The position numbers and the translations under genes were made by a program. The notes below the pieces were generated by a model. It saw only the letters and a list, made by a program, of their open reading frames with translations. It was not told the DNA's origin and ran no database searches. A DNA stretch of 64,000 bases from Candidatus Bathyarchaeota archaeon (GTDB taxonomy: Archaea > Thermoproteota > Bathyarchaeia > Bathyarchaeales > DTEX01), in assembly GCA_963714275.1 (NCBI GenBank), contig CAVQNT010000002.1, positions 640,001 through 704,000 of the forward strand. Reading direction: 5' to 3'. Shown here one piece after another: positions 41,269 through 56,393 of the stretch. The number at the start of each line of letters is the position of its first letter. Within the stretch, counting starts at the first letter, position 1.

Positions 41269-42568
41269 TTTTGAACCGTCCCTCCACAGCCAAAGAGTGG
41301 TTAAGAAGACCCTCTGCTTCAGCCATAACCTTCGCTGTTTTTCTCACTTTAAGGAGTCCTTGCTTTGAACACTCAACGATGTTGAACCGTTTAACGAAAT
41401 CGAAGACCGAAAGCCCAGAGTAAACGTGGCTGAAACCCTCGGTTGGAAGAATGTGAACCGTCCCAAGGCAATAGTCGCTCGCAGCAACAGGCGTGTAATC
41501 GCCAACCAAGACCAAGCCTGCGGACTTAATCTGTTCAGCAACACCCCAGCCATCATTAGACAAAACTTCAAGGTGTTCAGGAGCAAACTCGTTCACGAAC
41601 CCAACAGCCTCCTGAATGTTCTTGCAGACAACTATACAACCGTTTTTTGCTAGATTTTGAGCAACCATCCCGCAATTGGGAACCGTTTTAATGGCTTTTT
41701 GTAACTCTTTTACTACGGATTCTGAAACTTTCTGCGATGTCGTCACAAGAACCGCAACACCGTCCAAGTGCTCTGCCTGAGAAATCAAGTCCAAAGCAAC
41801 CGTACGCGGATTCGTTGTTTCATCAGCCAGCACGACAATTTCGCTTGGACCTGCAGGAACGTCAATCGGCAAATCCTGCGACACCAGCATCTTTGCTGCC
41901 ACGACGTATTTGTTGCCAGGTCCAACCAGCTTGTCAACGGGCTTAATTGTTTCAGTTCCGTACGCCATCGCTGCAACTGCCTGAGCGCCGCCTACTCGGT
42001 AGACTTCGTTGACTCCGCATATGTCTGCAGCCACCAAAATTGACGGGTCAATTTCGCCCTCGCTTCGGGGCGGCGAACAAACAACAATTTCGGGCACACC
42101 AGCGACCTTGGCTGGAGCAATCGTCATGACTAGGCTGCTCGAGTAAGCTGCTTCTCCTCCTGGAACGTAACAGCCTAACCTGCGGATTGGAGCAACGCAG
42201 CTGCGAAATTTTGTTCCGTTTGCTTCATACTGGAAGCTGAGTCGTTGAAGGAGCCTTTTTTGGGATGCTTCGACGCGTCTTTTGACAAACTTAATAGCAG
42301 AAACCTGTGCTCTACTGACTTTCAGATACGCTTTTCTGATGTCTTCGCTGTCCACTTTTATTTGGTTGTTAGACAGTTTCACGCCGTCTAATTTTTGGGC
42401 GAAATCAACGAGGGCTGAGTCACCTCGCTTCTTAACGTCCTCAATTATGGTTTTCGCTTGTCCTGTAACTTCGGAGTCAAAGCGTTTATTGTTCGGCCAT
42501 CTATTCTTTAAGATGGTAGTCTGTGCAGCGGAACAATCAAGCATTCTCATTTTGAGTTCACTGTTCAA
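41261..42568 (-). CDS. hisD: Histidinol dehydrogenase
   Basis: YVPGG, GGAQAV, GPGN, PAGPSE, SQAEH, PEHLE. Confidence 0.96.
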   Translation of the reverse strand: MNSELKMRMLDCSAAQTTILKNRWPNNKRFDSEVTGQAKTIIEDVKKRGDSALVDFAQKLDGVKLSNNQIKVDSEDIRKAYLKVSRAQVSAIKFVKRRVEASQKRLLQRLSFQYEANGTKFRSCVAPIRRLGCYVPGGEAAYSSSLVMTIAPAKVAGVPEIVVCSPPRSEGEIDPSILVAADICGVNEVYRVGGAQAVAAMAYGTETIKPVDKLVGPGNKYVVAAKMLVSQDLPIDVPAGPSEIVVLADETTNPRTVALDLISQAEHLDGVAVLVTTSQKVSESVVKELQKAIKTVPNCGMVAQNLAKNGCIVVCKNIQEAVGFVNEFAPEHLEVLSNDGWGVAEQIKSAGLVLVGDYTPVAASDYCLGTVHILPTEGFSHVYSGLSVFDFVKRFNIVECSKQGLLKVRKTAKVMAEAEGLLNHSLAVEGRFKNA

Positions 42569-43551
42569 CTTTCGCTGTTTCCCCCAAAATTCATCTCGTC
42601 GAGTGGCAGTACTTGGCGAGGCTCATAGACGACCAGTCCCTGAGCGAGCTTCCTTAAGGTCGGCAGAATCTCCAAGAAACGGTCTCTTTCGATGACCGTG
42701 TTCACCGAAAACCAGTCTTTGTCCGAAAGGGGAGAAACCGTTGGTCGCCTTAAAGCAGGCAAACTCGTTAACAGTTTTTCGAGGTTTTTTTTGTTGACGT
42801 TCACGAAGATGTGAAGTTTCTTCCTACCGTCCACGACTCCTCTCAAAAGAGTGATAATGTCGTAGATTTTTTCCTGTTTCGCCGGGTCTCTGAACGCCTT
42901 TTTGTTGGCTATCAAAATTGCGGTTGACTCCATCACAGCTTCCACGGTTTTAAGGTCGTTCTGTTCCAAAGTAGACCCAGTGTCAGCAACGTCGATTATG
43001 GCGTCAGCGTTCTCCGGTGGTTTAGCCTCAGTTGCACCGAAAGAAAGGAACAGGGCAACCTTGTCGTTCTGACCCTTCTTCCACCACGGCGTAATCATGA
43101 GAGGGTCTTTAGCACCATAAAGCGCGTTGTAGACGGGGTTCTTTTTCAGGAATTCCGCTGACAGGTTAAGGTACTCAGTTGAAACCCTCAGGGTCTTTCC
43201 TTGCTTAGAGAAACTTTCCAGCAGTTCTGAAAGGGAATTTATTTCCGTCCAAGGTTTTGGGACAGCTAGGACAAGTTTGACCCATGAGTATTCTAGGTCA
43301 AGCAAGACTTCAACGTCGACCTTGGTTTCCTGCAACCAGTCTTGGCCGGTGATACCTAGGTCTTGCAGTCCTTCGTTGACATAGATGGGGATTTCTTGGG
43401 GTCTCAGTACCTTTAACTCCATCATTGGGTCATTGACCTTTGGACGGTACGTTGTGTCTCCGCCTGAGATTACATATCCTGCGCGTTCCAACGTTTTGAA
43501 CGTGGCTTCTGCCAGGTGTCCTTTCGGGATGGCTAACCTAACTTTCTCCAT
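42565..43551 (-). CDS. hisG: ATP phosphoribosyltransferase (long form)
   Basis: LAIPKG, RPQEIP, DLGITGQD, SFGATEAKPP..ADAIID..TGSTL, C-terminal regulatory domain. Confidence 0.96.
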   Translation of the reverse strand: MEKVRLAIPKGHLAEATFKTLERAGYVISGGDTTYRPKVNDPMMELKVLRPQEIPIYVNEGLQDLGITGQDWLQETKVDVEVLLDLEYSWVKLVLAVPKPWTEINSLSELLESFSKQGKTLRVSTEYLNLSAEFLKKNPVYNALYGAKDPLMITPWWKKGQNDKVALFLSFGATEAKPPENADAIIDVADTGSTLEQNDLKTVEAVMESTAILIANKKAFRDPAKQEKIYDIITLLRGVVDGRKKLHIFVNVNKKNLEKLLTSLPALRRPTVSPLSDKDWFSVNTVIERDRFLEILPTLRKLAQGLVVYEPRQVLPLDEMNFGGNSES

Positions 43552-43830: not shown

Positions 43831-44925
43831 TCATGGATTATTACATCTGTAAATTCTCAGGTTGGCGGTGTTTGATTCACTATGTTTTCTGTAAAGTCTT
43901 TTCTCACCTGTTTCAGCATTACACAACACGACAGCGTTCCCAGCGTCTACTCCAATCCACCACAGCCCAACAAAGTCCTCCAGATACTGAAAAGGAATGT
44001 TCCCGATTCTTCCAAGCATCACCTCTTTTGGCTCAATAGACTCTTTTTCTGCCACATTAAGGAAGTCGTCTTTTCTCATATCCATTGAATCATTCATTGA
44101 CTTAAGGTCTAATTTGTCTATTGTGAATTGATGCCACAAATCGATGAAAAGCGTGGGTTTAACCAGCTCCTTCACAGCGATCTCGTAGACTTCGGGATCG
44201 TGTTCTTTCAATGCAACCAGGTATTCTCTGCCTAAACTGACTGATGGTTGACACAGGACGCTGCAAGGCACATGGGCAACAACTTTTAATTCAATGGGAA
44301 CAGATTTTTCCAAGCCTTTATCGACTATTGACTCGTAGAACAAATAGTCCTCTTGCGACTTCCGCTTTTCCCTTTCACTAGTGAACCTTTCGGTGCAACA
44401 TTCAGGGTATCCGAAGGCTGTCCCGAGGATTCTGTCAAACAACTCCATGGATTGTTGCGTCTGGGAATGCTGAGTTTTTGCTATGGCATATTGAGTGAGG
44501 AAATTCGTCAGTCCCTCGAAATCTTTTGTTATGATGATTTCAGAGGACGGGTTTAATGTGCCGCCTGCAAGATTTAGAGGAATTAACTTGCCTTCCGTCA
44601 GCGAACCCCAAAACTTTTCATACTCATTCAAGTTTGCAGACAAGCACTGAAAACGGTAATTCCTGGTCTCAACGTACCATGGAAGAGCCTTCACTTTTAC
44701 TTCTACGCTTTTTTGAAGGGAAGTTGGGTAACAAATCCTTATGGGATTGGGGGAATGCTCAAACCAAACGAGGTTAAGATCTGTCAAAAGTTCAATGAAG
44801 TTCGCGTAGTCTTCGCCGTGAAGTTCGAACTCCACTCTGACAGCAGGCTTCTTTCCTCGTATGATGGCTGCAAGTTGGGCGACGAAGGCTGGCTGTTTTC
44901 GGGCAAAATCTTCAATTAGCCTCAT
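43831..44925 (-). CDS. DUF483-like hypothetical protein
   Basis: GKKPA, LGTAFGYPECC and HVPCS..C..S motifs. Confidence 0.6.
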   Translation of the reverse strand: MRLIEDFARKQPAFVAQLAAIIRGKKPAVRVEFELHGEDYANFIELLTDLNLVWFEHSPNPIRICYPTSLQKSVEVKVKALPWYVETRNYRFQCLSANLNEYEKFWGSLTEGKLIPLNLAGGTLNPSSEIIITKDFEGLTNFLTQYAIAKTQHSQTQQSMELFDRILGTAFGYPECCTERFTSEREKRKSQEDYLFYESIVDKGLEKSVPIELKVVAHVPCSVLCQPSVSLGREYLVALKEHDPEVYEIAVKELVKPTLFIDLWHQFTIDKLDLKSMNDSMDMRKDDFLNVAEKESIEPKEVMLGRIGNIPFQYLEDFVGLWWIGVDAGNAVVLCNAETGEKRLYRKHSESNTANLRIYRCNNP

Positions 44926-45016: not shown

Positions 45017-45817
45017 TTATTTTATGTATTTTTTCAGAGCTGCCTTAACGTCTAAGCCTTCGTGGACGATGCCGCAGATCACGCGGACCATGCTTGCGGG
45101 GTCTTTGTGTTGAAAGACGTTTCTTCCGGTTGCCGCGCCAGCTCCTCCAGCTTTCACTGAATCGTAGACCATCTGGCAAAACTCCGCTTCTGTCTCGGTT
45201 TTCGGTCCGCCCGCCATAATAACAGGAACTGGGCAGCCCTTAACAACCTCTTTGAACGTTTCCAGACTGCCAGTGTAGTTGGTTTTCACGATGTCGGCTC
45301 CGAGCTCAGCGCCTATACGCGCGGCGTGCTTGACAACCTCAACGTCGTACTGGTTCTTAATCTTCTCTCCCCTTGGGTAGACCATGGCTAAAAGCGGCAT
45401 GCCCCAGTCTTCGCATATTTTGGTAACTTCGCCGAGAACCCGTAGCTGTGCAGGTTCAGTTTTCGAGCCGACGTTAATGTGTATCGATACAGCGTCAGCG
45501 CCTAACTTAATCGCCTCAAGAACGTCAGCAACCAACACTTTGTCGTTTGGGTCAGACCCTAGCGAGGTGCTTCCTGAAAGGTGCATTATGAGGCCAATGT
45601 CTTTGCCGTAGCCTCTGTATCCCGCTCTTATGATGCCTTTATGCAGAAGCACGGCGTTCGCTCCGCCTTCCGCTACCTTGTTCACGGCGGTTCTCATGTC
45701 CTCTAAGCCGCGGATTGGACCGTCGGTTAATCCGTGATCCATGGGAATGATGACGGTCCTTCCGGTGTCTCTTTTCATGATTCTGTCCAGTCTGATTCTT
45801 TTTCCGATTTCTGTCAC
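45017..45817 (-). CDS. aroA': 2-amino-3,7-dideoxy-D-threo-hept-6-ulosonate (ADH) synthase, DhnA-type aldolase
   Basis: [36 protein letters not shown]; divergent from the aro operon. Confidence 0.85.
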
Positions 45818-46184
45818 TTTTAATACACCTTAGTTGGATGGTTTGGTCTGAACTGCCCGTAAAATAAACGAGGTTAAGGCATAAAAGATTTTGCTTTAAT
45901 AAAAGTATATGCCATCTTGTTGTCAGTTTTTATAGATTCTTCTGGTCTGTTTTGTTCAACATCAGGTTTTGCTGTTTGAATAACATTTGCTGTTTTCGAG
46001 AGGCTATCTGATTTGTGTAACAATCAAGTTTTCCGTTTGCATAACAATATTAAAACTTGTGAAAAATGACCTGTTTTAAAGCATGTTTGTTTCGCGGTTT
46101 TGGAACAATTTGACCAAATTTGTAGTTAGTTTCTAGGCTGAACATTTTTTATAAAACGGTCATGAAAGAGTGTTCTCTGTTTTC

Positions 46185-46228
46185 ACAAGGCTTAAATACG
46201 ACTTAAAGGTAGAAACGTGGCGCGGAGA
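46185..46228 (+). promoter_or_regulatory. Archaeal promoter and SD for the aromatic-operon leader
   Basis: CACAAGGC-TTAAATA (TATA 46192..46198); GGAG at 46224..46227, 9 nt before ATG 46237. Confidence 0.6.
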
Positions 46229-46236
46229 ACCCGAAA

Positions 46237-46323
46237 ATGCACAGAAAATGTTCATTAAGGCTTCTCGGCACGATCCGTGCGTTTCGTTTCTTTAGCTGGT
46301 ATACTAAATATACCACATATTAG
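46237..46323 (+). CDS. Leader peptide MHRKCSLRLLGTIRAFRFFSWYTKYTTY (28 aa)
   Basis: ATG..TAG with SD; last 13 codons contain 3 Phe, 1 Trp, 3 Tyr, 3 Thr, 1 Lys; directly upstream of the aspartokinase-aro operon. Confidence 0.75.
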   Translation: MHRKCSLRLLGTIRAFRFFSWYTKYTTY

Positions 46324-46326
46324 GCT

Positions 46327-46375
46327 GGAAGAGCCAACACATTCGCATTCCATCCGTCTCTGGTTCTTCCTTTTT
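46327..46375 (+). terminator. Attenuator-like hairpin plus U-tract
   Basis: GGAAGAGCCA (46327..46336) pairs with TGGTTCTTCC (46361..46370) over 10 bp with one G-U, immediately followed by TTTTT. Confidence 0.65.
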
Positions 46376-46388
46376 GGGGTTGTTGAAA

Positions 46389-47664
46389 ATGAGTGTAAAC
46401 AAAAATAGAAAGATGCTCGGTCGAATCGTCGTCAAGTTCGGCGGCACAAGCCTAGCTGACGGACTCGGCATTTTCCACGCCGCGGAATCCGTTATCAAAA
46501 AAGCGAAGCAGGGCGTTCAAGTAGTGGTTATTGTCTCAGCTATGGGAAAATCCACAGATGCTTTGATTGAAACGACTCGCCAAGCCTGCGAAGGCTCGGG
46601 TTCAAACGTGGACTTAGACGACGTCGTCGCAATGGGCGAACGCATTAGCGCTAGAATCTTTTCAGCCACGCTGAAGGCACAAGGAATATACAGTCATTAT
46701 CTGGACCCTTCACATCAAGACTGGCCAATCATTACGGACGACAATTTCGGGAACGCCAGCCCCATTTTGCCTGTTTGCGAGAAACTAATCAAACATCATG
46801 TTCAGCCATTGCTTGAGAAAGGTGTGACGGTTGTCGTTCCTGGCTTCATCGGCAGAACTGAAGACGGCAGAACAACGACGATGGGAAGGGGAGGAAGCGA
46901 CATAACGGCTTTTGTCTTGGCTCAAGCCTTGTCTGCAGACCTGATTTTGTTAGTCACTGACGTTCAGGGCATATTGACGGCTGACCCGAAAATCATCAAG
47001 AACCCTCGGAAGCTCAACGAAATATCAATCGACAACCTTATAGGGTTAGCTGACTCCGGAACCAAATTCATCCATAAAAAAGCCTTAAAGTACAAGACAC
47101 CCAAAATAGACGTAAAAGTCGTCAGCAACGCCTCCAGCGACTTGGATTTGGATGGAACCTTGATACGTGGAGGGTTCCCCCAAAACCTGCTTGTCGAATC
47201 GCACCCAGACTCAGCCGCAGCAATCACAATAGTGGGAAGGGGTCTTTCGGAATCACCTCAGACTCTTTTTAGGGTTTTCAGTGAGATTTCGAAGGCTGAC
47301 GCTCAGCTTTTGGGGATGTCTGTTAACCATAATTCCATAATTTTGTATCTGCCTTCGAAGGCTGCTGAAGGCATCCTAGAATCCATCCATTCGATCGTGG
47401 TCAGCGACGAAAAGGCTCAAGCTGATGGCGGTGAAAAAGGACCTTACTTTTGTTAGGGTTAAAGGTGTCGGGTTAGAGGACACTCCTGGAGTTGTAAGCA
47501 ACATAACTAAAGCCTTAAACTCTGAGGGTGTCAACATCTATGGGATTTTCACTATCACGTCAAGCGTTGTGATCTTCGTGGACTTTAAGGACGAGGAAAA
47601 AACGGTTCGTCTAATGAAAAAAACCTTGACAATGAATCACAATGGGCAATTTAAAGCCCTTTAA
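46389..47664 (+). CDS. lysC: Aspartokinase with ACT domains (frameshift near 47420)
   Basis: VVKFGGTS, VSAMG, MGERIS, TTMGRGGSD, TDVQG..ADPK, C-terminal DTPGV ACT. Confidence 0.92.
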
Positions 47665-47678
47665 AGGAGACGAAGAAG

Positions 47679-48774
47679 ATGCGGGAACTATGGGTTAAAA
47701 TCAATCCTAACTTATCCTTGAAGGGAAAGAAGATGGTTGTCGAAAAGACGGCTACGTTAGTTTCAGTCTTCATTGTTGAACCTCAGGACCTCGAATTAGT
47801 GAAAGAGTCGGGAGCGAAGACAACAGCAAGTTCGACTGAAAAAGGAGACATAATGATAGTAGAAGGTCCCAAAGAAATCGCCAAAGCTAGACAGACTGGA
47901 AAGAAAACGTGCATTCTTGTGACGGTGAAATCAAAAGCGGACGAAGCCAAAATCGAGGCTGCAGACTGAGGCTTCAACAGACTATGTAGCGGTTGAGTGC
48001 CCAGACTGGAAAGTCATTCCTTTAGAGAATCTCATCGCGAAGGTGCACGGGAAAACTAAGCTGCTGGCTGTTGCATTAAGCGTGCAAGAGGCAAAGACGG
48101 CGCTTGAGACTCTTGAGATAGGGGTTGACGGAATCGTGGCATACCAGACGAACGTAAATGAAATAATAAAAATCAGCGAGGTCATAAAGGAAACCAAGAC
48201 AAGAACGGATGAGGAGGAGTCAATCAAAACAATATCGCTTCTCCCTGCCAGAGTGACCGAAATTAAACCTCTTAGCTCAGGAGCTCGGGTATGCATAGAC
48301 ACATGCGATCTCATGAGGGAAGGCGAAGGCTTGCTCGTCGGATGCCAGTCTAACGGTCTTTTCCTCGTCGAAGCTGAGGTTCATGAAACACCGTTCGTTG
48401 CTCCTCGCCCGTTCAGAGTTAATGCTGGGTCAATCTCGCTTTATGTTCTTGCGCCGGACGGTAAAACCCGGTACCTTTCGGAGCTTAAAGCTGGAGACGA
48501 GGTGCTGATAATTGACCGAAACGGAAGACCGAGAACGACGAACATAGGTCGCGTAAAAATAGAGTGGCGACCGTTGCTGATGATTGAGGCTGAATGCCAA
48601 GGGAAAACTGTCAAAACAATATTGCAAAACGCTGAAACCATAAGAGTCGTCACGGAAAAAGGAAGCAAATCCGTTAAAGACATGAAAGCTGGCGACACAA
48701 TTATGGTGCGGTTTGAGGAGGGCGGCAGACACTTCGGAACCCTTGTTAAAGAAGAGAAAGTGATTGAAAGGTGA
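47679..48774 (+). CDS. aroB': 3-dehydroquinate synthase II (frameshift near 47965)
   Basis: DWKVIPLENLIA, RVCIDT, RPFRVNAG, YLSEL, LQNAETI, RHFG. Confidence 0.93.
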
Positions 48775-49470
48775 AGCCTAGAATCTGTGTTCCGCTGCCG
48801 GTCGAAAGGCTCTCTGACCTTACATCAATGATTAAAAGAGCTGAGAACGCGGGGGCGGACTTAATCGAGATACGTTTAGACTACTTAAAAGACACCCAAA
48901 GTCAGCTGAGATGCCGTGAAAGAGGTAATCAGCCAAGTTTCAGTGCCCCTAATTGCTACAAACAGGGAGCACAGCCAAGGAGGAAAACGGGTCCAAAAAG
49001 AAGAACTGAGAGTTCAAACTTTGGTTAAAGCAGCTGAAATCGGTTTTCAGTACGTCGACATCGAATTGACCACGGCAAGTTTAGAAACAATTGTCAAAAA
49101 AATTCTGGACTGCAGTTCAAAACCCATCATCTCATTCCACGATTTTAAAGGCACGCCTTCAGACTCGGAAATGGAAAACATCGTAAATTCACAGATTAAG
49201 GCAGGAGCGTCCATCTGCAAGTTAGTCACAACAGCAAAAATCCTCGACGACAGCGTCAGATGCCTACTTTTCACTCAAAAAATGAGCAATGTCACGGACA
49301 TCGTTTGCTTCGCCATGGGCAGCCAAGGCGTCCTTTCAAGGATTCTTTCGCCTTTGTTCGGGGGATTTTTTACCTTCTCTGCGCTTGAGGTTGGCTTAGA
49401 GACTTCTTCGGGCCAAATCTCATTAACCGAGCTAAAAGAACTCTACAGGAAATTAGGTGTCAACGCATGA
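48771..49470 (+). CDS. aroD: Type I 3-dehydroquinate dehydratase (frameshift near 48910)
   Basis: GADLIEIRLD, ATNR..GG, YVDIE, ISFHDF..TP, FAMG..SR. Confidence 0.92.
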
Positions 49471-50348
49471 AGATCTCAGGGAAAACTAAGGTCTGCGGGT
49501 TGATAGGAGACCCAGTAGAGCACTCTTTAAGCCCTTGTTTTCAAAACGCTGCTTTTCAGAATCGAGGCTTAGACTTTGTTTACGTCGTTTTTAAAGTAGA
49601 AAAGGGAGGACTTGAAGCAGTCATCGCAGGAATGCGGAGCTTAGGGATATTCGGGTTAAATGTTACGATGCCTTACAAGATCGATGTTATCCAGTATCTC
49701 GACGAGTTAGACGAGACAGCGAAAAGCATCGGATCAGTCAACACCATTCTAAACAAGAAAGGAAAGCTAATTGGGTTCACGACGGATGGCAAAGGCGCCC
49801 TCGAAGCCCTAAAATACAATGGCGTAGAGCTGCCAGGAAAAAAAGTAGTGGTCTTAGGAGCTGGAGGTGCTTCCAGATCAGTTTCTTTGACTCTGGCTAA
49901 AGAGGTTAAGGAACTAGTGATCCTAAATAGGACTTTAGGGAAAGCCGAGGAACTCGTCAAAGAACTCAAGACGACTCAGGCTGTCAATGCATCCGTTAAA
50001 GCTGAAGAACTCAATCATCATAATGCTCAACAGGAGCTGCGGAACGCTGACATCCTCGTCAACGCAACATCCATGGGCATGCGTCCGCATGACAGGTTGA
50101 TGCCGGTGGATTCGTCGTTTCTACGGTCTGATTTGGTGGTTTTCGACCTCGTTTACGAACCTCTTGAGACAAGGCTGCTTGTGGAAGCAAAGAAAAAGGG
50201 AGCGACAACAATAGACGGACTGACCATGCTTGTGTTTCAAGGAGCCGTTTCCTTCGAAACTTGGACAGGCGTAAAGGCGCCAGTGGAAGTGATGATGGAG
50301 GCTGCTGCAGAGGAAATAGCTCAAAGGTCAACAAGTAAAAGGGGATAA
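49467..50348 (+). CDS. aroE: Shikimate dehydrogenase
   Basis: GDPVEHSLSP, NVTMPYK, SVNT, GAGGA, NATSMG, DLVYEP. Confidence 0.95.
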   Translation: MKISGKTKVCGLIGDPVEHSLSPCFQNAAFQNRGLDFVYVVFKVEKGGLEAVIAGMRSLGIFGLNVTMPYKIDVIQYLDELDETAKSIGSVNTILNKKGKLIGFTTDGKGALEALKYNGVELPGKKVVVLGAGGASRSVSLTLAKEVKELVILNRTLGKAEELVKELKTTQAVNASVKAEELNHHNAQQELRNADILVNATSMGMRPHDRLMPVDSSFLRSDLVVFDLVYEPLETRLLVEAKKKGATTIDGLTMLVFQGAVSFETWTGVKAPVEVMMEAAAEEIAQRSTSKRG

Positions 50349-50352
50349 TAAT

Positions 50353-51224
50353 GTGGCTGACGTTGGAAAAGCGGTTGCGTATGGTGCTGTGACCGTCATA
50401 AACGCCATCTCATGCGGATTTGGTGCTGCCCTCAGCATCGACCTAAAAACTGAAGCCACCGTGAAACTGACTGACGAACCGGGTCGGATTAAGGGGCGAA
50501 TATTGTCAGACCTAGAGGAAAGCCCAGCTCTCATTGAGAAGACTGTTAGTCAAGTTTTTAGATGGTTCGATCTTGAACATGAACATGGCGCTTACGTGGA
50601 AACGCAATCGAACATTCCCATAGCACGCGGTCTAAAAAGCAGCAGCGTGGCAGCTAACGCAATAACGCTTGCATCACTAGCAGCATTGGGAAAAAAAGTT
50701 AGTGACCTAACTGCAGTCAACATCGGAGTGGACGCAGCCTTGGATGCTGGAGTTACAATTACAGGCGCATTTGACGATGCTTGCGCATCCTTTTTCGGAG
50801 GCATCGTAATCACCGACAATTTTAGAAGAAAAATTATGAAAAAGATTCAGCCTCCAGAAAAGCATCCAATTCTGATACATGCGCCCACAGCCAAAGCTTA
50901 CACGGCTGATTCGAACGTGCGGAAAATGAAAATCATATCTGAGGAGGCGAAGGCTCTTCACAGAATGGCTTTTCGCGGAGACTGGATGGCAGCCATGACG
51001 CTGAATGGATTATTATATTCAGTGGTTCTGGAATACGACCCAAACACAGCTATCGACGCACTGGAAGCAGGAGCTCAGCTGCAGGATTATCGGGAAAGGG
51101 ACCAGCAGTCGCTGCCGTTGTTCCACGAGAAAACGTCAACAGCGTAAGGGAAGCATGGAAAAAGTTTGGCGGCAACGTAATTGAGGCTAAGATTAACACT
51201 GAGAAAGCCCACAGATTATGGTGA
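50353..51224 (+). CDS. aroK: Archaeal GHMP-type shikimate kinase (frameshift near 51075)
   Basis: GAVTVINA, PIARGLKSSS, TITGAFDD, TDN, shifted GLSGKGP. Confidence 0.92.
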
Positions 51225-52525
51225 CCAATGTGACTGATCTCATCGTTAAACAAGTAGAAAGCCTAGACGGAACCGTTAAAGCGCCTCCTTCAAAGTCTTT
51301 CACGCACCGAGTCATAATCGCTACTTCGCTTTCGGAAGGTCGCTCGATAATCAAAAACGCGCTTTTCTGCGACGACACGTCGGCGACCCTTGAAGCATGC
51401 CGTATGCTGGGAGCCAGAATAGACCAGAATGAATATGGTGCCCTAAAAATTGATGGGCGTTCTAAGCCTTTAACGCCTGAAGATGTGATTGACTGCCGAG
51501 ACTCAGCTTCGACGATGCGGTTTCTCGCCCCAGTCTGCGCGTTAGCGGACGGCATATCGGTGTTAACGGGCGGAGAAAGCCTTCGCCTGAGACCCATGGA
51601 ACCTGTTTTGTCAACGTTGATGCAGCTAGGCGTTCTTTGTTATTCTGCGAGGGGAGACAATCATCCGCCATTGATTGTTTTCGGAGGAGGAATCACAGGT
51701 GGCGAAGTCGTTCTCAAAGGAGACGTAAGCTCACAGTTTACGTCAGGATTGCTTTTTGCATCGCCTTTGGGAGAGAAAGACACAGATATTATATTGTCGA
51801 CTCCTCTCGAGTCCAGACCTTACGTGGAAATGACGCTGGATGTTCTGAGAAAGCATGGGTTAAATTTTGAGGTCCAACGCGATTACGGGCAGTTCCACGT
51901 GCCTTGCCAGCAAACTTACAGTCCATCCGACCACGTTATAGAAGGCGACTATTCGTCAGCAGCGTTTCTTCTGGCAGCAGCAGCCATAACAAAATCGAAC
52001 GTAAAGTTAACGAACCTTCGAAGCGATTCAGTTCAAGGTGACCGTGCAATCGTCAAACTGCTCAGGGAAATGGGCGTTCAAGTCAAGGTGGGTAAAGGCT
52101 CCGTAGAAGTCCAAAACGTGAAAAACGAGTTAAGACCCATAGATGTGGACCTTAAAGACAACCCAGACTTAATCCCAGTGATGACTGTTGCTTCTTGTTT
52201 TGCAGACGGAAAATCCCTTATTCGCGGTACGAAGAGACTGCGACTTAAGGAGTCTGACCGTGAAACTGCTTTGCTCAGCGAGTTGATGAAGGTGGGCGCA
52301 AAAATCAAGTCCACCAAAGGCATAATACAGGTCGAAGGCACAAAAAATCTCAAAGGGGCACAGTTGGATTCGCACGGGGATCACAGGATAGCGATGGCTT
52401 GCGTTGTCGCTAGTTTAAGGGCTGCCGGAACAACAACCGTTAAGGGCATCGAATGCATAAATAAGTCGTACCCCGATTTTGTTAGAGACATCGTTTCCTT
52501 GGGAGCGGATGTTGTTGAGCGGTAA
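51218..52525 (+). CDS. aroA: EPSP synthase
   Basis: PPSKSFTHR, SLRLRPM, SSQF, LRLKESDR, GDHRIAM, KSYP. Confidence 0.96.
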   Translation: MVTNVTDLIVKQVESLDGTVKAPPSKSFTHRVIIATSLSEGRSIIKNALFCDDTSATLEACRMLGARIDQNEYGALKIDGRSKPLTPEDVIDCRDSASTMRFLAPVCALADGISVLTGGESLRLRPMEPVLSTLMQLGVLCYSARGDNHPPLIVFGGGITGGEVVLKGDVSSQFTSGLLFASPLGEKDTDIILSTPLESRPYVEMTLDVLRKHGLNFEVQRDYGQFHVPCQQTYSPSDHVIEGDYSSAAFLLAAAAITKSNVKLTNLRSDSVQGDRAIVKLLREMGVQVKVGKGSVEVQNVKNELRPIDVDLKDNPDLIPVMTVASCFADGKSLIRGTKRLRLKESDRETALLSELMKVGAKIKSTKGIIQVEGTKNLKGAQLDSHGDHRIAMACVVASLRAAGTTTVKGIECINKSYPDFVRDIVSLGADVVER

Positions 52526-53616
52526 CTCAATAAGCAAAATTCTGGTCGTCACATGCTTCGGAGAAAGCCACGGACCATGCGTCGGAGCAGTTGTAGATGG
52601 ATGTCCAGCGGGTTTACCCATAACTTCCGATGACATACAAACTGAGTTAAACAAGAGAAAATCTGGATTAACAGCAGTCAGTACGCCGAGGAGGGAAGAA
52701 GACCAAGTCGAGATTCTTTCAGGAGTCTTCAATGGGCATACTACCGGCGCACCGATCTGTCTGATTATTGGGAACCGGGATGTTGAACCGGAAGCCTACG
52801 AGCATATGAGACACAAACCTAGACCTGGACACGCTGATTACATAGCCTACATGAAATACGGCGGATTCAACGATTACAGAGGCGGAGGACGATTCTCCGG
52901 ACGTGTCACAGCAGCATACGTCGCGGCGGGAGCAATCGCCAAGAAACTGTTGACACAAATAAGCGTTGAAGTATTAGCGCACACGGTTCAAATCGGTAAG
53001 ATAAAAATCACAAAAAATGTTTCATACGACCAAATTCGCGAGAACGTTTATGATAATGCTGTCCGCTGTGCAGTGCTCGAATCCGCTGATCTCATGGAAA
53101 AAGAAATCCTGAAGGCTGCGGAAGAAGGGGATAGCCTTGGAGGTGTAGTTGAGGTTATTGCCTTAAACGTTCCAGCTGGACTGAGGTGAGCCAGTTTTTG
53201 ACTCGTTGGATTCGGACATTGCTAAGATGATGTTCAATATTCCAGCCGTTAAAGGCGTGGAGTTTGGCGCTGGTTTTCAGGTGGCTTCTCTAAAAGGTTC
53301 AGAAAACAACGATGCATATGTCATACGGAAAGGAAAGGTTACCTCTCCAACCAACAATGCAGGTGGGGTTCTGGGCGGACTCTCAACAGGCATGCCGATT
53401 GTCTTAAGGGTCGCGTTTAAGCCAACGTCCTCAATAGCGAAAAGGCAAAAAACTGTTGATCTGACAAAAATGAAGGAAACCGAGATTGAAGTTGCGGGTA
53501 GACATGATTTGTGCATCGTGCCGCGTGCTGTGCCAGTCGTGGAATCTTGCCTTGCTTTGGTTCTGGCGGATCATGCGCTCAGAGCTGGGAAGATACCTAA
53601 AGTAATTAAGGCTTAA
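52509..53616 (+). CDS. aroC: Chorismate synthase (frameshift near 53185)
   Basis: FGESHG, RPGHAD, RGGGRFSGR, GGLSTG, FKPTSSI, GRHD. Confidence 0.95.
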
Positions 53617-53695: not shown

Positions 53696-54957
53696 ATGTC
53701 TCGTCTTTTAGGCGTGATCGCGGACGATTTCACAGGCGCATGCGACGCTGGCATCCAATTCAGAAAGTGTGGTCTTGAAACTGTTGTTTTGGCTGACGTT
53801 GAAAAAATACGCGAGTTTAAAGATGCTGCGGACATCATTGTTGTTGACACCGAAACCAGAAACCTTGACCCAAAGGCAGCTTACGATAAAGTGAATCAAA
53901 CGCTGAAAACTTTTCAAAAGATCGACGTTAAACTTGTCTATAAAAAAATCGATTCAACACTTAGGGGAAACTTCGGAGTTGAACTTGACGCTGTTCTGGA
54001 TGAACCGACAATCAGAGGCGTTTTAGTGGCTTCATCTTATCCGCAACAGGGCAGAACCGTCGTAAATGGGCAGGCTTACGTTAAAGGTGTCTCGCTTGAA
54101 AAAACGGAGTTTGCCTATGAATTATTGAGTCCAGTGAAAGATTCTCATGTTCAACCGCTGATAGAAAGGCAATCCAACCGAAAAATTGGGCTTTTAAACC
54201 TGTCCATGATTAGAGCTGGACCTGACGAATTGAGAGATCATCTAGAAAAGCTTTTGGAAAAAGGCAACAGAATAATCGTGGCTGACGCTGAAACCCAAGA
54301 AGACCTAGACAAGGTTGCGAAAGCTTCTATCGATCTGAACCTTTTGCCCTGTGGGTCAGCTGGGCTGGCTGAGAAAATCGCTTTGTCAATGACTTCTAAG
54401 AAGCGGTTGCTTGTAGTTTCAGGAAGCGTTAACAACGTGACGCTTGACCAGATTGAAACGGCAGAAAAAAGCTTGGGATTCCAATTGTTGAACCTGACCT
54501 CGACGAAATCTTGGTAAGCGACAAAAAACTGCGAGTTGCAGCAACCAATCTTGCTGATAAGGCTGTAACAGTCCTTCGGGAGACGGGAATCGTCACAGTT
54601 AGGCTTGCAAGCTCCAGAAATGTTATTCAAAAAACGTTAGATTTAGGCGAAAAGCTTGGTTTAAGCCGCATGCAAGTTGTTGAAAAACTTCTTTCTGTCT
54701 TAGGTTTGGCTGTAGGTGAAGTTTCTAACCATTGTAGGCTAAACAGTTTGGTCTTGATAGGAGGTGATTCTTCGGCGAAAGTAATAGATGCGATTGGGGC
54801 TGAAGGAATAAGGATTGAGGTTGAAATTTTTCCCAGCATATCGATGGGCAGAATCCATGGTGGTAAACATGAAGGGATGTTAGTTGTCACAAAGGCAGGC
54901 GGATTCGGTGACAAACAAACACTTGTAGATGTCATCAATTATTTAGAAAAAATTTAA
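53696..54957 (+). CDS. Four-carbon acid sugar kinase family (DUF1537) protein (frameshift near 54480)
   Basis: IADDFTGA, YKKIDSTLRGN, GSAGLA, GGD, TKAGGFG. Confidence 0.88.
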
Positions 54958-55056: not shown

Positions 55057-56393
55057 TTATGCTTTTTTAAGGTGCTTAAGGGCGTCTTTCACGTTTTTGA
55101 ACCCGTATTTTATGTCAGCGTGTTCGTTCCTTAAAGCCATCACGTCTTCCCTGACTTCGGGCGGTTTACGCTTACCTTTTATGATATCAAGCATCAGGTC
55201 GCAGAAGTGCTTAACGTCGTTTTCATTGAAGCCTCTTCTTGTGATGTCCTGGAAGCCAATTCTGAGCCCAGAAGGATTCTCCCTGTTGTTCTGGTTGTCG
55301 TAGGGCAACAGGTTTCTGTTCAGAATTATGTTGGCAGCCTCAAGGTTTTCCGAGATTTTCTTTCCGCCACCAAAAGCTCGGACGTCAACCGCTATTTGAT
55401 GTGACCTTGTGAATCCTTTGTGCTGACCCAGCACTGTTACGCCGTTCTCGTAAAGGTATTGCCCAGCAGTCTGAGCGTTCTTCACTGTCTGTTTCGCGTA
55501 GGCTTCGCCGAACAACCGCATCTCAAGGGCAGCCACACCCAAAGCGGGTAAACGCCCCAGATGAGTGTTCGACGTGCTCAGCGGAAAAATGGCGTACTGA
55601 ATGTTTTTTATGGCTTTTTCCATGCGGGCACCCTTAAGGTTTCCAAGGATTACACCTCCTTGGGGTCCTGGAAACGTTTTATGGGTTGATGCTGTTATGA
55701 AGTCTGCTCCTTCTTTGAATGGGTCTTGGAATGTGCCTCCAGCTATGAGCCCAAGTACATGCGCTGCGTCATAAACAACATAGGCATCTACTTCGTCTGC
55801 AACAGCCCTTAGTTCTTTAACTGGGTGTGGAAACAGGAAAAGACTGCCGCCAAATGTTATGATTCCTGGTTTTGCAGCTCTGATTATTGCACTGATTTGT
55901 CGGGATCGATGTTCATTTCTTGTGGGTCGTAAGCGTGTTCGATATTTACCAGCCCCAGAACTCTCCCTGCAAGACCCGAATAGTCATGGGTGATGTGCGC
56001 TCCAGCACTAAGTGGCGTAACGACCATCTTTTGGTTTTTCGAGGTTAAAGACAAACCCTTGAAAGCTGCAAGATTCGCGTGTGTACCAGAAACCAGACGT
56101 ACGTCGGTCCAGCTACATCTGAAAAGTCCTTTCATTAAGTCAGCTGCCCTGTCTTCGATGGTCGACATGTATTTTTGGCCTTGATAGTACCGTTTCTCAA
56201 CATGCCCTTCTAGATCGTTTTCGCCTTCAGCGTATCGGCTTTCAAGATCCATCGACAAACGAAGCATTTCCTTAACTGCTGGGGATTTTATGCCTTCGCT
56301 GGCGATGAGGTTAATGCATTCTTTTTCGCGGTATTGCTCATGTTTTTCGCTGGCTTCAATGAGTTCGAGAGCAACCTCAAGAAATTCGTCCAT
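55057..56393 (-). CDS. glyA: Serine hydroxymethyltransferase, archaeal type (frameshifts near 55880 and 55630)
   Basis: INLIASE, RYAEG, SGTHAN, YDAAHV, STHKTFPGPQGG, NLLP, SGLRIG. Confidence 0.93.

Follow-up and report, generated by a model that had tools for sequence, protein, structure and literature searches.

The stretch of DNA analysed here (the window) comprises 64,000 nucleotides (nt) of a Candidatus Bathyarchaeota archaeon, positions 640,001 to 704,000 of contig CAVQNT010000002.1 in assembly GCA_963714275.1. It carries an operon that opens with an aspartokinase gene and continues with genes of the shikimate pathway, and in front of the aspartokinase lies a 28-codon open reading frame (ORF) whose second half is crowded with phenylalanine (Phe) and tyrosine (Tyr) codons and whose stop codon is followed at once by a predicted hairpin. 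We consider it probable that this ORF is a real regulatory leader of an aspartokinase/DKFP-type shikimate operon, in which a ribosome serves as the sensor of Phe and Tyr.

The leader and the operon behind it

The features of the locus are collected in Table 1. Translated from the window DNA, the leader peptide reads MHRKCSLRLLGTIRAFRFFSWYTKYTTY; its aromatic residues (F16, F18, F19, W21, Y22, Y25 and Y28) all fall within the final 13 positions. The distance from the TATA-like box to the leader ATG is 45 nt in the window and 44–45 nt throughout the 13 loci of the window's family, and the leader stop lies 65 nt from the aspartokinase ATG. An original prediction, made from the letters of the DNA, had described the 28-codon ORF with its TATA box and GGAG, seven aromatic codons in the last 13 positions and a stop 65 nt before the operon. 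Coordinates and signals were confirmed from the letters, and the codon count and the 65-nt distance are exact.

Table 1. Features of the leader and its operon in the window
Feature	Position	Strand	Evidence or remark
Promoter: ttcacaag, then TATA-like cttaaata (46191-46198)	46182..46198	+	block kept in family alignment
Shine-Dalgarno GGAG of the leader ORF	46224..46227	+	9 nt 5' of leader ATG
Leader ORF, 28 codons and TAG	46237..46323	+	ATG at 46237, TAG 46321-46323
Phe/Tyr(/Trp) codon cluster, codons 16-28, proposed sensing part	46282..46320	+	aromatic profile over 63 loci
Predicted hairpin: 5' arm GGAAGAGCCA, 24-nt loop, 3' arm TGGTTCTTCC	46327..46370	+	begins 3 nt after stop codon
Run of five T (U5)	46371..46375	+	abuts 3' end of hairpin
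Shine-Dalgarno-like GGGG(T) and aspartokinase ATG (46389)	46376..46391	+	purine-rich Shine-Dalgarno after hairpin also in aligned relatives
Aspartokinase, two overlapping frames (46389-47456; 47425-47664, ACT domain)	46389..47664	+	Pfam AA_kinase 2e-45, ACT_7 9e-09
DHQS-II (split), type I dehydroquinase (split), shikimate dehydrogenase, GHMP-type kinase, EPSP synthase, chorismate synthase (split)	47679..53616	+	Pfam
DeoC/LacD-family aldolase, presumed ADH synthase of DKFP route, divergent	45017..45817	-	Pfam DeoC 7.8e-72

Pfam matches also bear out the gene set that had been predicted behind the leader. They give the order AA_kinase (with ACT), DHQS-II, DHquinase_I, shikimate dehydrogenase, GHMP kinase, EPSP synthase and chorismate synthase, and the features of a DKFP-type operon are present in DHQS-II (PF01959), the DeoC/LacD-family aldolase and the later shikimate enzymes. 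The enzyme activities are those suggested by family membership; this aldolase family and DHQS-II constitute the archaeal aspartate-semialdehyde route to aromatics. The aldolase is divergent in the window's own family and lies on the same strand, 3' of the aspartokinase, in most others; its own strand shows no aromatic short ORF at any of the nine loci of the window's family that were examined.

Though many genes of the assembly are split, the leader frame is not an indel artefact, an objection that had been raised alongside the original prediction, because a second genome (L010, 87% aspartokinase identity) keeps the same 28-codon frame with four residue changes. The aspartokinase itself is a single frame of 414–482 amino acids (aa) in its orthologues, and the frame change in the window sits at an A5 run.

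Aromatic-rich upstream ORFs in the genome

The genome from which the window was taken (G000) comprises 2.64 megabases in 10 contigs and is 91% complete. Among its short ORFs lying at most 150 nt upstream of a long ORF, 6 of 3945 have at least seven aromatics in the last 13 residues and 22 have at least six. Counted instead by the 1498 long ORFs, the most aromatic upstream ORF reaches at least four aromatics in 14% of cases, at least five in 4.3%, at least six in 1.5% and at least seven in 0.4%. The single-genome case is unusual, not decisive. Upstream ORFs with seven aromatics are not rare enough in this genome, and the case therefore rests on comparison with relatives.

Nine other aromatic-rich short ORFs inspected in the same genome stand before unrelated genes and have no comparable combination of Shine-Dalgarno (SD) sequence and hairpin; the hairpin pattern of the window locus is unique in the genome. 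A ranking of the short ORFs on single-amino-acid runs brought out no convincing further leader, and a candidate rich in Tyr and histidine (His) was rejected as an off-frame reading of a threonine (Thr)-repeat protein.

Conservation of the leader across relatives

Orthologous loci were taken at 49–87% aspartokinase identity, the paralogue being at 36–45%. In the first two sets of relatives, in which several genomes are present twice (from two collections) and two more loci have no upstream sequence, all 31 orthologous loci with upstream sequence carry a short ORF that has four to eight aromatics in its last 13 residues and ends 50–68 nt 5' of the aspartokinase start. A class-wide sample yielded an orthologue (E ≤ 1e-80) in 162 of 401 genomes, and 60 further loci were picked from it across families and genera; at least six aromatics were found in 40 of these, at least four in 45, and three or fewer in 15. 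After dropping duplicates, loci with N and loci outside a gap of 30–80 nt, there remain 63 distinct Bathyarchaeia loci with a Phe/Tyr-rich short ORF at the same place, and there is little nucleotide similarity between families. A check proposed with the original prediction, that conserved aromatic short ORFs be sought upstream in relatives despite nucleotide divergence, thus came out in its favour.

Outside the class but within the same phylum (both labels being those of the tool), at least five aromatics occur in 13 of 19 loci and at least six in 8 of 19. None of 15 paralogous aspartokinase loci has as many as four. ADH synthase, DHQS-II or both come after the aspartokinase in nearly all loci, and in most families they share its strand. 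From the restriction of the leader to orthologues and its linkage to the operon, we conclude that it travels with the operon and not with aspartokinases in general.

The leader endings differ by family (...RFFS.Y..YTTY, ...FSGYW.TFNY, ...FGYYFYYYFN, ...MFYSFSYFFYN, ...FFDFFYYYFYFE and ...AYRYYYRFF). What the family leaders share is composition and position, not sequence.

The loci without an aromatic cluster (L083-L089, L098-L101, L111-L113, L115 and L116) belong to two Bathyarchaeia families. Most of them have another conserved short ORF, MGD[HC]LFGDGVY... or MHGDHVYGDGY, in which two aromatic positions are fixed and GGTGA[CT] words recur.

Codon content of the leader

The positional profile, leader length, start signals and codon composition given here cover the 63 loci. 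Numbered back from the stop, the aromatic fraction is 0.48 at codons −1 and −2, 0.63 at −3, 0.86 at −4 and 0.83 at −5, and it remains at 0.51–0.63 over codons −6 to −12 before falling to 0.29 at −13, 0.14 at −14 and at most 0.11 further upstream. The aromatic cluster therefore spans codons −12 to −1 and is bounded at −12. The median leader is 26 codons long, and a plain SD with an in-frame start, the start codons being predicted ones, precedes the cluster in 39 loci, including all 13 of the window's family.

We compared the composition of the last 13 codons with that of the tails of short ORFs in G000. Tyr is enriched 8.5-fold and Phe 4.1-fold, and the two together make up 55% of these codons. 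Tryptophan (Trp) stands at 1.4 times the background (2% of residues), Thr at 1.3 and lysine (Lys), which is depleted, at 0.21; leucine, isoleucine and valine (Leu, Ile and Val) stand at 0.07–0.11, and their near absence argues against a merely U/A-rich tract. The original prediction had been of a multivalent leader sensing Phe, Trp and Tyr and possibly Thr and Lys. These ratios uphold Phe and Tyr; they give no such backing to Trp, and Thr/Lys sensing was set aside as unsupported. The position of the window's lone Trp codon is Tyr or glycine (Gly) in the two closest relatives, and the Thr-Thr near the end of the leader is confined to the window's own family. The codon content of the leader fits the end products of the operon behind it.

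Within families, pairwise (ungapped) comparison gave 348 aromatic codon differences, of which 76 are synonymous, 72 exchange one aromatic for another and 200 lead to another residue. An aromatic is thus kept at 148 of 348 differing positions, against 8 of the 36 single-base neighbours of Phe and Tyr codons, the pairs not being independent.

Anthranilate synthase component I (PF00425) was not detected in G000, a genome that is 91% complete, and a genome of the same genus has one. Its absence fits the near absence of Trp codons from the leader, and an assembly gap is a possible cause.

A hairpin at the leader stop codon

The arms of the hairpin predicted in the window pair over 10 base pairs, one of them G-T, and are followed by TTTTT, GGGG and the aspartokinase ATG. 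In 60 of the 63 loci the main hairpin begins between −3 and +5 nt from the end of the stop codon, with a median folding free energy of −17.4 kcal/mol. Compared with dinucleotide shuffles, the spacers have a mean z of −2.73 and 65% of loci lie below −2; 150 control spacers between a short ORF and a gene in G000 have a mean z of 0.08, with 7% below −2. Arm sequences vary between families. Compensatory double changes that keep the pair occur in five of eight consensus pairs in the window's family and in two of eight in a second family alignment, the consensus folds having been obtained with MAFFT and alifold on shorter segments; long segments gave no consensus in two of three groups. The last aromatic codon lies 3–14 nt (mean 7.7) 5' of the first paired base in every locus. 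The comparison of genomes shows conservation, across the class and beyond, of four things: the ORF, the bias in its codons, the place where it sits and the predicted hairpin.

U-runs lie within or after the hairpin in 76% of loci, and the longest one is inside the hairpin in 40 of 63. Within the 12 nt after the hairpin, a run of at least five U is present in 6 of 63 loci, the U5 of the window among them. A generic terminator and promoter scan showed no enrichment (21 found against 22.5 expected); such a scan is blind to the leader hairpin because of its long loop. Searched with Rfam at the gathering threshold, the whole window gave only a tRNA and no leader family, and at E ≤ 10 the interval 45800-46500 gave two chance-level hits, neither overlapping the leader ORF or the hairpin.

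In five loci of another class of the same phylum (L125, L126, L128, L135 and L136), the aromatic leaders end in Gly-Pro-stop (Pro, proline) and the stop lies in the loop of a small hairpin, whose 3' half can pair downstream to give a larger hairpin. In these predicted folds a true alternative-structure switch is possible.

Output step

The effect of a ribosome on the hairpin was modelled by constrained partition-function folding (at equilibrium, 37 °C) of 11 states, with an assumed footprint of −15 to +12 around the A site. In these models the hairpin forms with a probability of 0.78 in the free RNA. With the A site at −10 to −4, masking of the leader tail raises this only to 0.81–0.85; the probability is 0.48 with the A site at −2, 0.24 at −1 and 0.08 on the stop codon. 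On these figures, therefore, a ribosome can prevent the hairpin only from the last codons or the stop.

Several familiar ways of converting this into gene control were tried and rejected. For a classical antiterminator, pairing of the leader tail (last 60 nt) with the 5' arm gave −8.18 kcal/mol for cognate and −8.46 kcal/mol for non-cognate combinations over 59 loci, and its pairing with the 3' arm and with the SD region likewise showed no cognate advantage; with no co-varying antiterminator found in these loci, the alternative-hairpin design of bacteria has no support. Sequestration of the aspartokinase SD was rejected on the predicted unpaired probability of the SD and start, which is flat at 0.41 in the free RNA, 0.40–0.44 with the ribosome on the cluster and 0.46 on the stop; in most loci the hairpin does not include the SD. 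A frameshift at a hungry codon, through the hairpin to the aspartokinase start, was rejected on the positions of stops in the 63 loci: the first stop comes within the last 20 nt ahead of the aspartokinase start, or beyond that stretch, in 24 of 63 loci for the +1 frame and 18 of 63 for the −1 frame, and in 29 of 63 the −1 frame stops inside the cluster.

The mechanism that we propose is as follows. The transcript would begin about 20 nt 5' of the leader ORF, and a ribosome would load at the GGAG. We infer that the ORF is translated and acts as the sensor: the ribosome would read about eight Phe/Tyr codons in twelve, up to the stop at the foot of the hairpin, and its dwell time on the cluster would report the charged tRNA-Phe and tRNA-Tyr. 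Its position would then decide whether the hairpin between leader and aspartokinase can form. In one version, (a), the hairpin would mean 'off', and a ribosome held on the last aromatic codons would cover its foot so that transcription or expression continues. In the other, (b), the hairpin would mean 'on' and would form whenever the ribosome is held upstream, anywhere in the cluster; an unhindered ribosome would reach the stop and cover the 5' arm at the time when the 3' arm is being transcribed, and the spacer, then single-stranded, would be left exposed to termination, with FttA/aCPSF1 as one archaeal factor that might bring it about.

The hairpin of the window, with its U5, resembles a terminator, as would fit (a), and this version stays alive in that every locus has an aromatic codon near enough to reach the foot of the hairpin. 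The peak of aromatic codons at −4 and −5, their dip at −1 to −3 and the location of most sensing codons beyond reach of the hairpin favour (b). Archaeal termination is described as resting on U-tracts and aCPSF1/FttA (PMC8716108), and steric competition between FttA and a coupled ribosome has been put forward as a hypothesis in the Discussion of PMC11616081. We give (a) and (b) about equal weight and a purely translational effect less.

Histidine and tryptophan leaders elsewhere in the lineage

Short ORFs with single codons for other amino acids stand before two further kinds of gene. In the window, the ORF VRDQVHTRRLRSSLAFVTLL (43726-43664, minus strand), with a TATA-like box upstream and a single His codon at position 6, lies 113 nt upstream of hisG (42565-43551, minus strand, ATG at 43551). 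The motif [ML]R[DN]C[VI]H.RRL.S or a variant occurs 83–196 nt upstream of hisG in 6 of 11 loci of relatives with long-form HisG, and such a leader was found in none of 19 short-form HisG loci.

At the trpE loci of relatives (L120-L124 and L166-L194), a short ORF of the form M-[RG]-[DNYG]-x-[VLIF]-W stands behind a TATA box and SD in 30 of 34 cases. In all 30 the TrpE frame is +1 to the short ORF and the codon before TGG ends in TT; the leader has a single Trp codon, at position 6. No ATG, GTG or TTG occurs in the TrpE frame before the conserved N-terminal motif in 15 of the 30, and none after the Trp codon in 24. From this arrangement, the Trp leader is likely a programmed +1 frameshift at a hungry Trp codon, the alternative being a non-canonical start.

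In prfB, which encodes RF2, the ribosome shifts to the +1 frame in making the product, and this shift serves autoregulation. The trpE leader resembles prfB in having a codon ending in UU before a slow codon that starts with U, so that the P-site tRNA could re-pair on UUU, in a purine-rich, SD-like stretch a few bases upstream, and in the regulated protein being the predicted product of the shifted frame. It differs in that the slow codon is Trp and not a stop, in its archaeal host and in the longer spacing of the SD-like stretch.

The first five codons of the His leader in the window nearly match those of the trpE leader of a same-genus genome (L124), and the aromatic leader of L023 (MRDKC...) shares these first codons with the His and Trp leaders. 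We regard this likeness as a lead, not a finding.

Weighing of the explanations

The existence of leaders with His and Trp codons at other operons of the lineage counts for the reading of the aromatic ORF as a ribosome-mediated sensor. A number of points weigh against that reading. A look-up of RNA runs over 45800-47400 returned none, no co-varying alternative pairing was found in 59 loci, and the predicted accessibility of the aspartokinase SD and start does not change with ribosome state. Version (a) explains only the last few codons, because a stall at −12 to −4 leaves the hairpin intact, and version (b) needs an 'off' step that has no visible counterpart in the sequence. Only 15 of 63 loci, the window among them, show a run of at least four U in the 12 nt that follow the hairpin, and such a run is common only in some families; the longest U-run between stop and aspartokinase start averages 4.13 against 3.27 in shuffles, a modest enrichment. 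Two families, with 15 of the 60 class-wide loci, have no aromatic cluster. The ORF taken at each locus was the most aromatic one in a 210-nt window, which inflates the low counts (14% of controls reach four), and the relatives are non-independent samples, so that the counts overstate independence.

The alternative that we take most seriously, and still regard as unlikely, is purely translational control, in which leader and hairpin set the initiation of the aspartokinase and transcription is unaffected. It would suit the closeness of the hairpin, which ends only 8–24 nt 5' of the aspartokinase start and nearly abuts it in L071, L072 and L079, and the lack of a U-tract after the hairpin in most families, archaeal termination being reportedly dependent on U-tracts (PMC8716108). 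It is opposed by the position of the SD outside the hairpin in most loci and by a predicted accessibility that is alike in the free, cluster and stop states, and the 3' arm pairs with the SD no better in cognate (−5.6) than in non-cognate (−6.1) combinations.

We think it quite improbable that the element is an untranslated structured or U/A-rich RNA, such as a protein-binding site or something riboswitch-like, that merely reads as Phe and Tyr codons. Such codons are rich in U and A, so a U-rich tract could mimic the cluster, and the absence of an Rfam match leaves room for a novel RNA element. An RNA of this kind does not explain why one frame is kept, with SD and start in 39 of 63 loci and the stop at the hairpin foot in 60 of 63, or why Leu, Ile and Val codons are almost absent from the tract; moreover, the sequences of tract and arms vary by family, unlike a site that binds a ligand or protein.

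Less probable again is a small peptide with a function of its own, perhaps an aromatic-rich membrane peptide or a precursor peptide, that is produced alongside the pathway enzymes. Conservation of the ORF and its expression signals would suit such a peptide; but only the composition and position of the ORF are kept, its length and N-terminal half vary freely, and Pfam shows no modifying enzyme in the operon. A chance ORF in an AT-rich spacer, which the 22 of 3945 upstream short ORFs reaching at least six aromatics might bring to mind, is refuted by recurrence, since 63 loci, and 13 of the 19 outside the class, have the ORF before this operon, against 0 of 15 paralogous loci.

Neighbouring genes and assembly

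Directly 3' of chorismate synthase, at 53696-54957 on the plus strand, lies a gene pair or split gene of the four-carbon acid sugar kinase family (SBD_N and NBD_C), possibly a part of the operon. The interval from the aldolase to hisG contains a 364-aa ORF (43831-44925, minus strand) with a weak, sub-threshold match to DUF483 (22.7 bits, cut-off 25). The region between aldolase and leader is 571 nt long in the window and 293–377 nt in eight relatives. It contains an interspersed repeat at about 45934-46157, upstream of the leader promoter, with 37 other matches in the genome (E ≤ 0.001, 70–95% identity), seemingly made of two copies of a core of about 45 nt.

Genes are split over two frames in the aspartokinase (47425-47456), DHQS-II (47969-48043), dehydroquinase (48771-49028) and chorismate synthase (53189-53206); serine hydroxymethyltransferase (55057-56393, minus strand) is split too, as is ilvC just beyond the window. 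Because both junctions that were inspected fall at A5 or T5 runs, the splits suggest assembly indels rather than decay.

Relation to known leader systems

Leader-peptide attenuation is textbook bacterial gene control and needs ribosomes close behind RNA polymerase. The bacterial leader attenuators (pheL/pheA, trpL, hisL, thrL, ilv/leu; Rfam Phe_leader and relatives) share several traits with the element described here: a 5' short ORF that has its own ribosome-binding site, codons for the end product packed densely in it and, immediately after these, a stable hairpin ahead of the first structural gene. In the way its sensing codons are spread over about ten positions near the stop, the element resembles pheL. 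Unlike these attenuators, the archaeal leader has an archaeal host, no Rfam leader match and no co-varying antiterminator or 1:2 pairing, its hairpin starts at the stop codon itself, and a U-tract is present in a minority of loci. Hairpins are not known to be required for termination by archaeal RNA polymerase. By its sequence features, the leader would work like a bacterial leader-peptide sensor but falls outside the bacterial attenuator class for want of an alternative hairpin.

A second comparison is with the mgtL/mgtP proline-codon leaders and tnaC, where the position of the ribosome on the leader sets downstream structure or the exposure of RNA at the stop. This logic fits version (b), with FttA/aCPSF1 in the place of Rho. 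The comparison is one of layout, with a stop that adjoins the foot of the hairpin and U-runs either inside the hairpin or behind it, and, unlike mgtL and tnaC, the archaeal leader shows no recognisable factor-binding site. Translational attenuation of erm and cat likewise uses a leader ORF and, after it, a hairpin with a 5' arm that a stalled ribosome can reach. In erm and cat the ribosome-binding site of the gene is masked by the 3' arm, whereas the archaeal SD is outside the hairpin and its predicted accessibility is unchanged.

A full-text literature search found no archaeal leader-peptide attenuator, subscription journals being outside its coverage, so that this is no proof of absence; nor does an archaeal case appear in the accessible portions of PMC2965389, PMC1262725, PMC6393860, PMC10219788, PMC8116511 and PMC11616081. 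Upstream ORFs are said in general terms, with reference to reviews, to regulate genes in archaea too (PMC10219788). The suggestion made at the outset that this may be an undescribed archaeal system is thus in keeping with the open full texts.

Whether archaea use leader-peptide attenuation is an open question in the literature that was searched. An archaeal leader so widely conserved, whose sensing logic is obvious and whose output module is not the bacterial one, would offer a concrete test object for the crosstalk between archaeal ribosomes, RNA polymerase and termination factors. It would also mark a dedicated, apparently regulated aspartokinase as the first gene of the archaeal aspartate-semialdehyde route to aromatic amino acids. 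We see an even chance that Bathyarchaeia and neighbouring classes regulate several amino-acid operons through 'hungry' codons, with Phe/Tyr, His and Trp leaders that would be the first of their kind in archaea. If this were true for all three leaders, amino-acid sensing that depends on coupling or recoding would not be a bacterial invention, and its archaeal build would be a different one.

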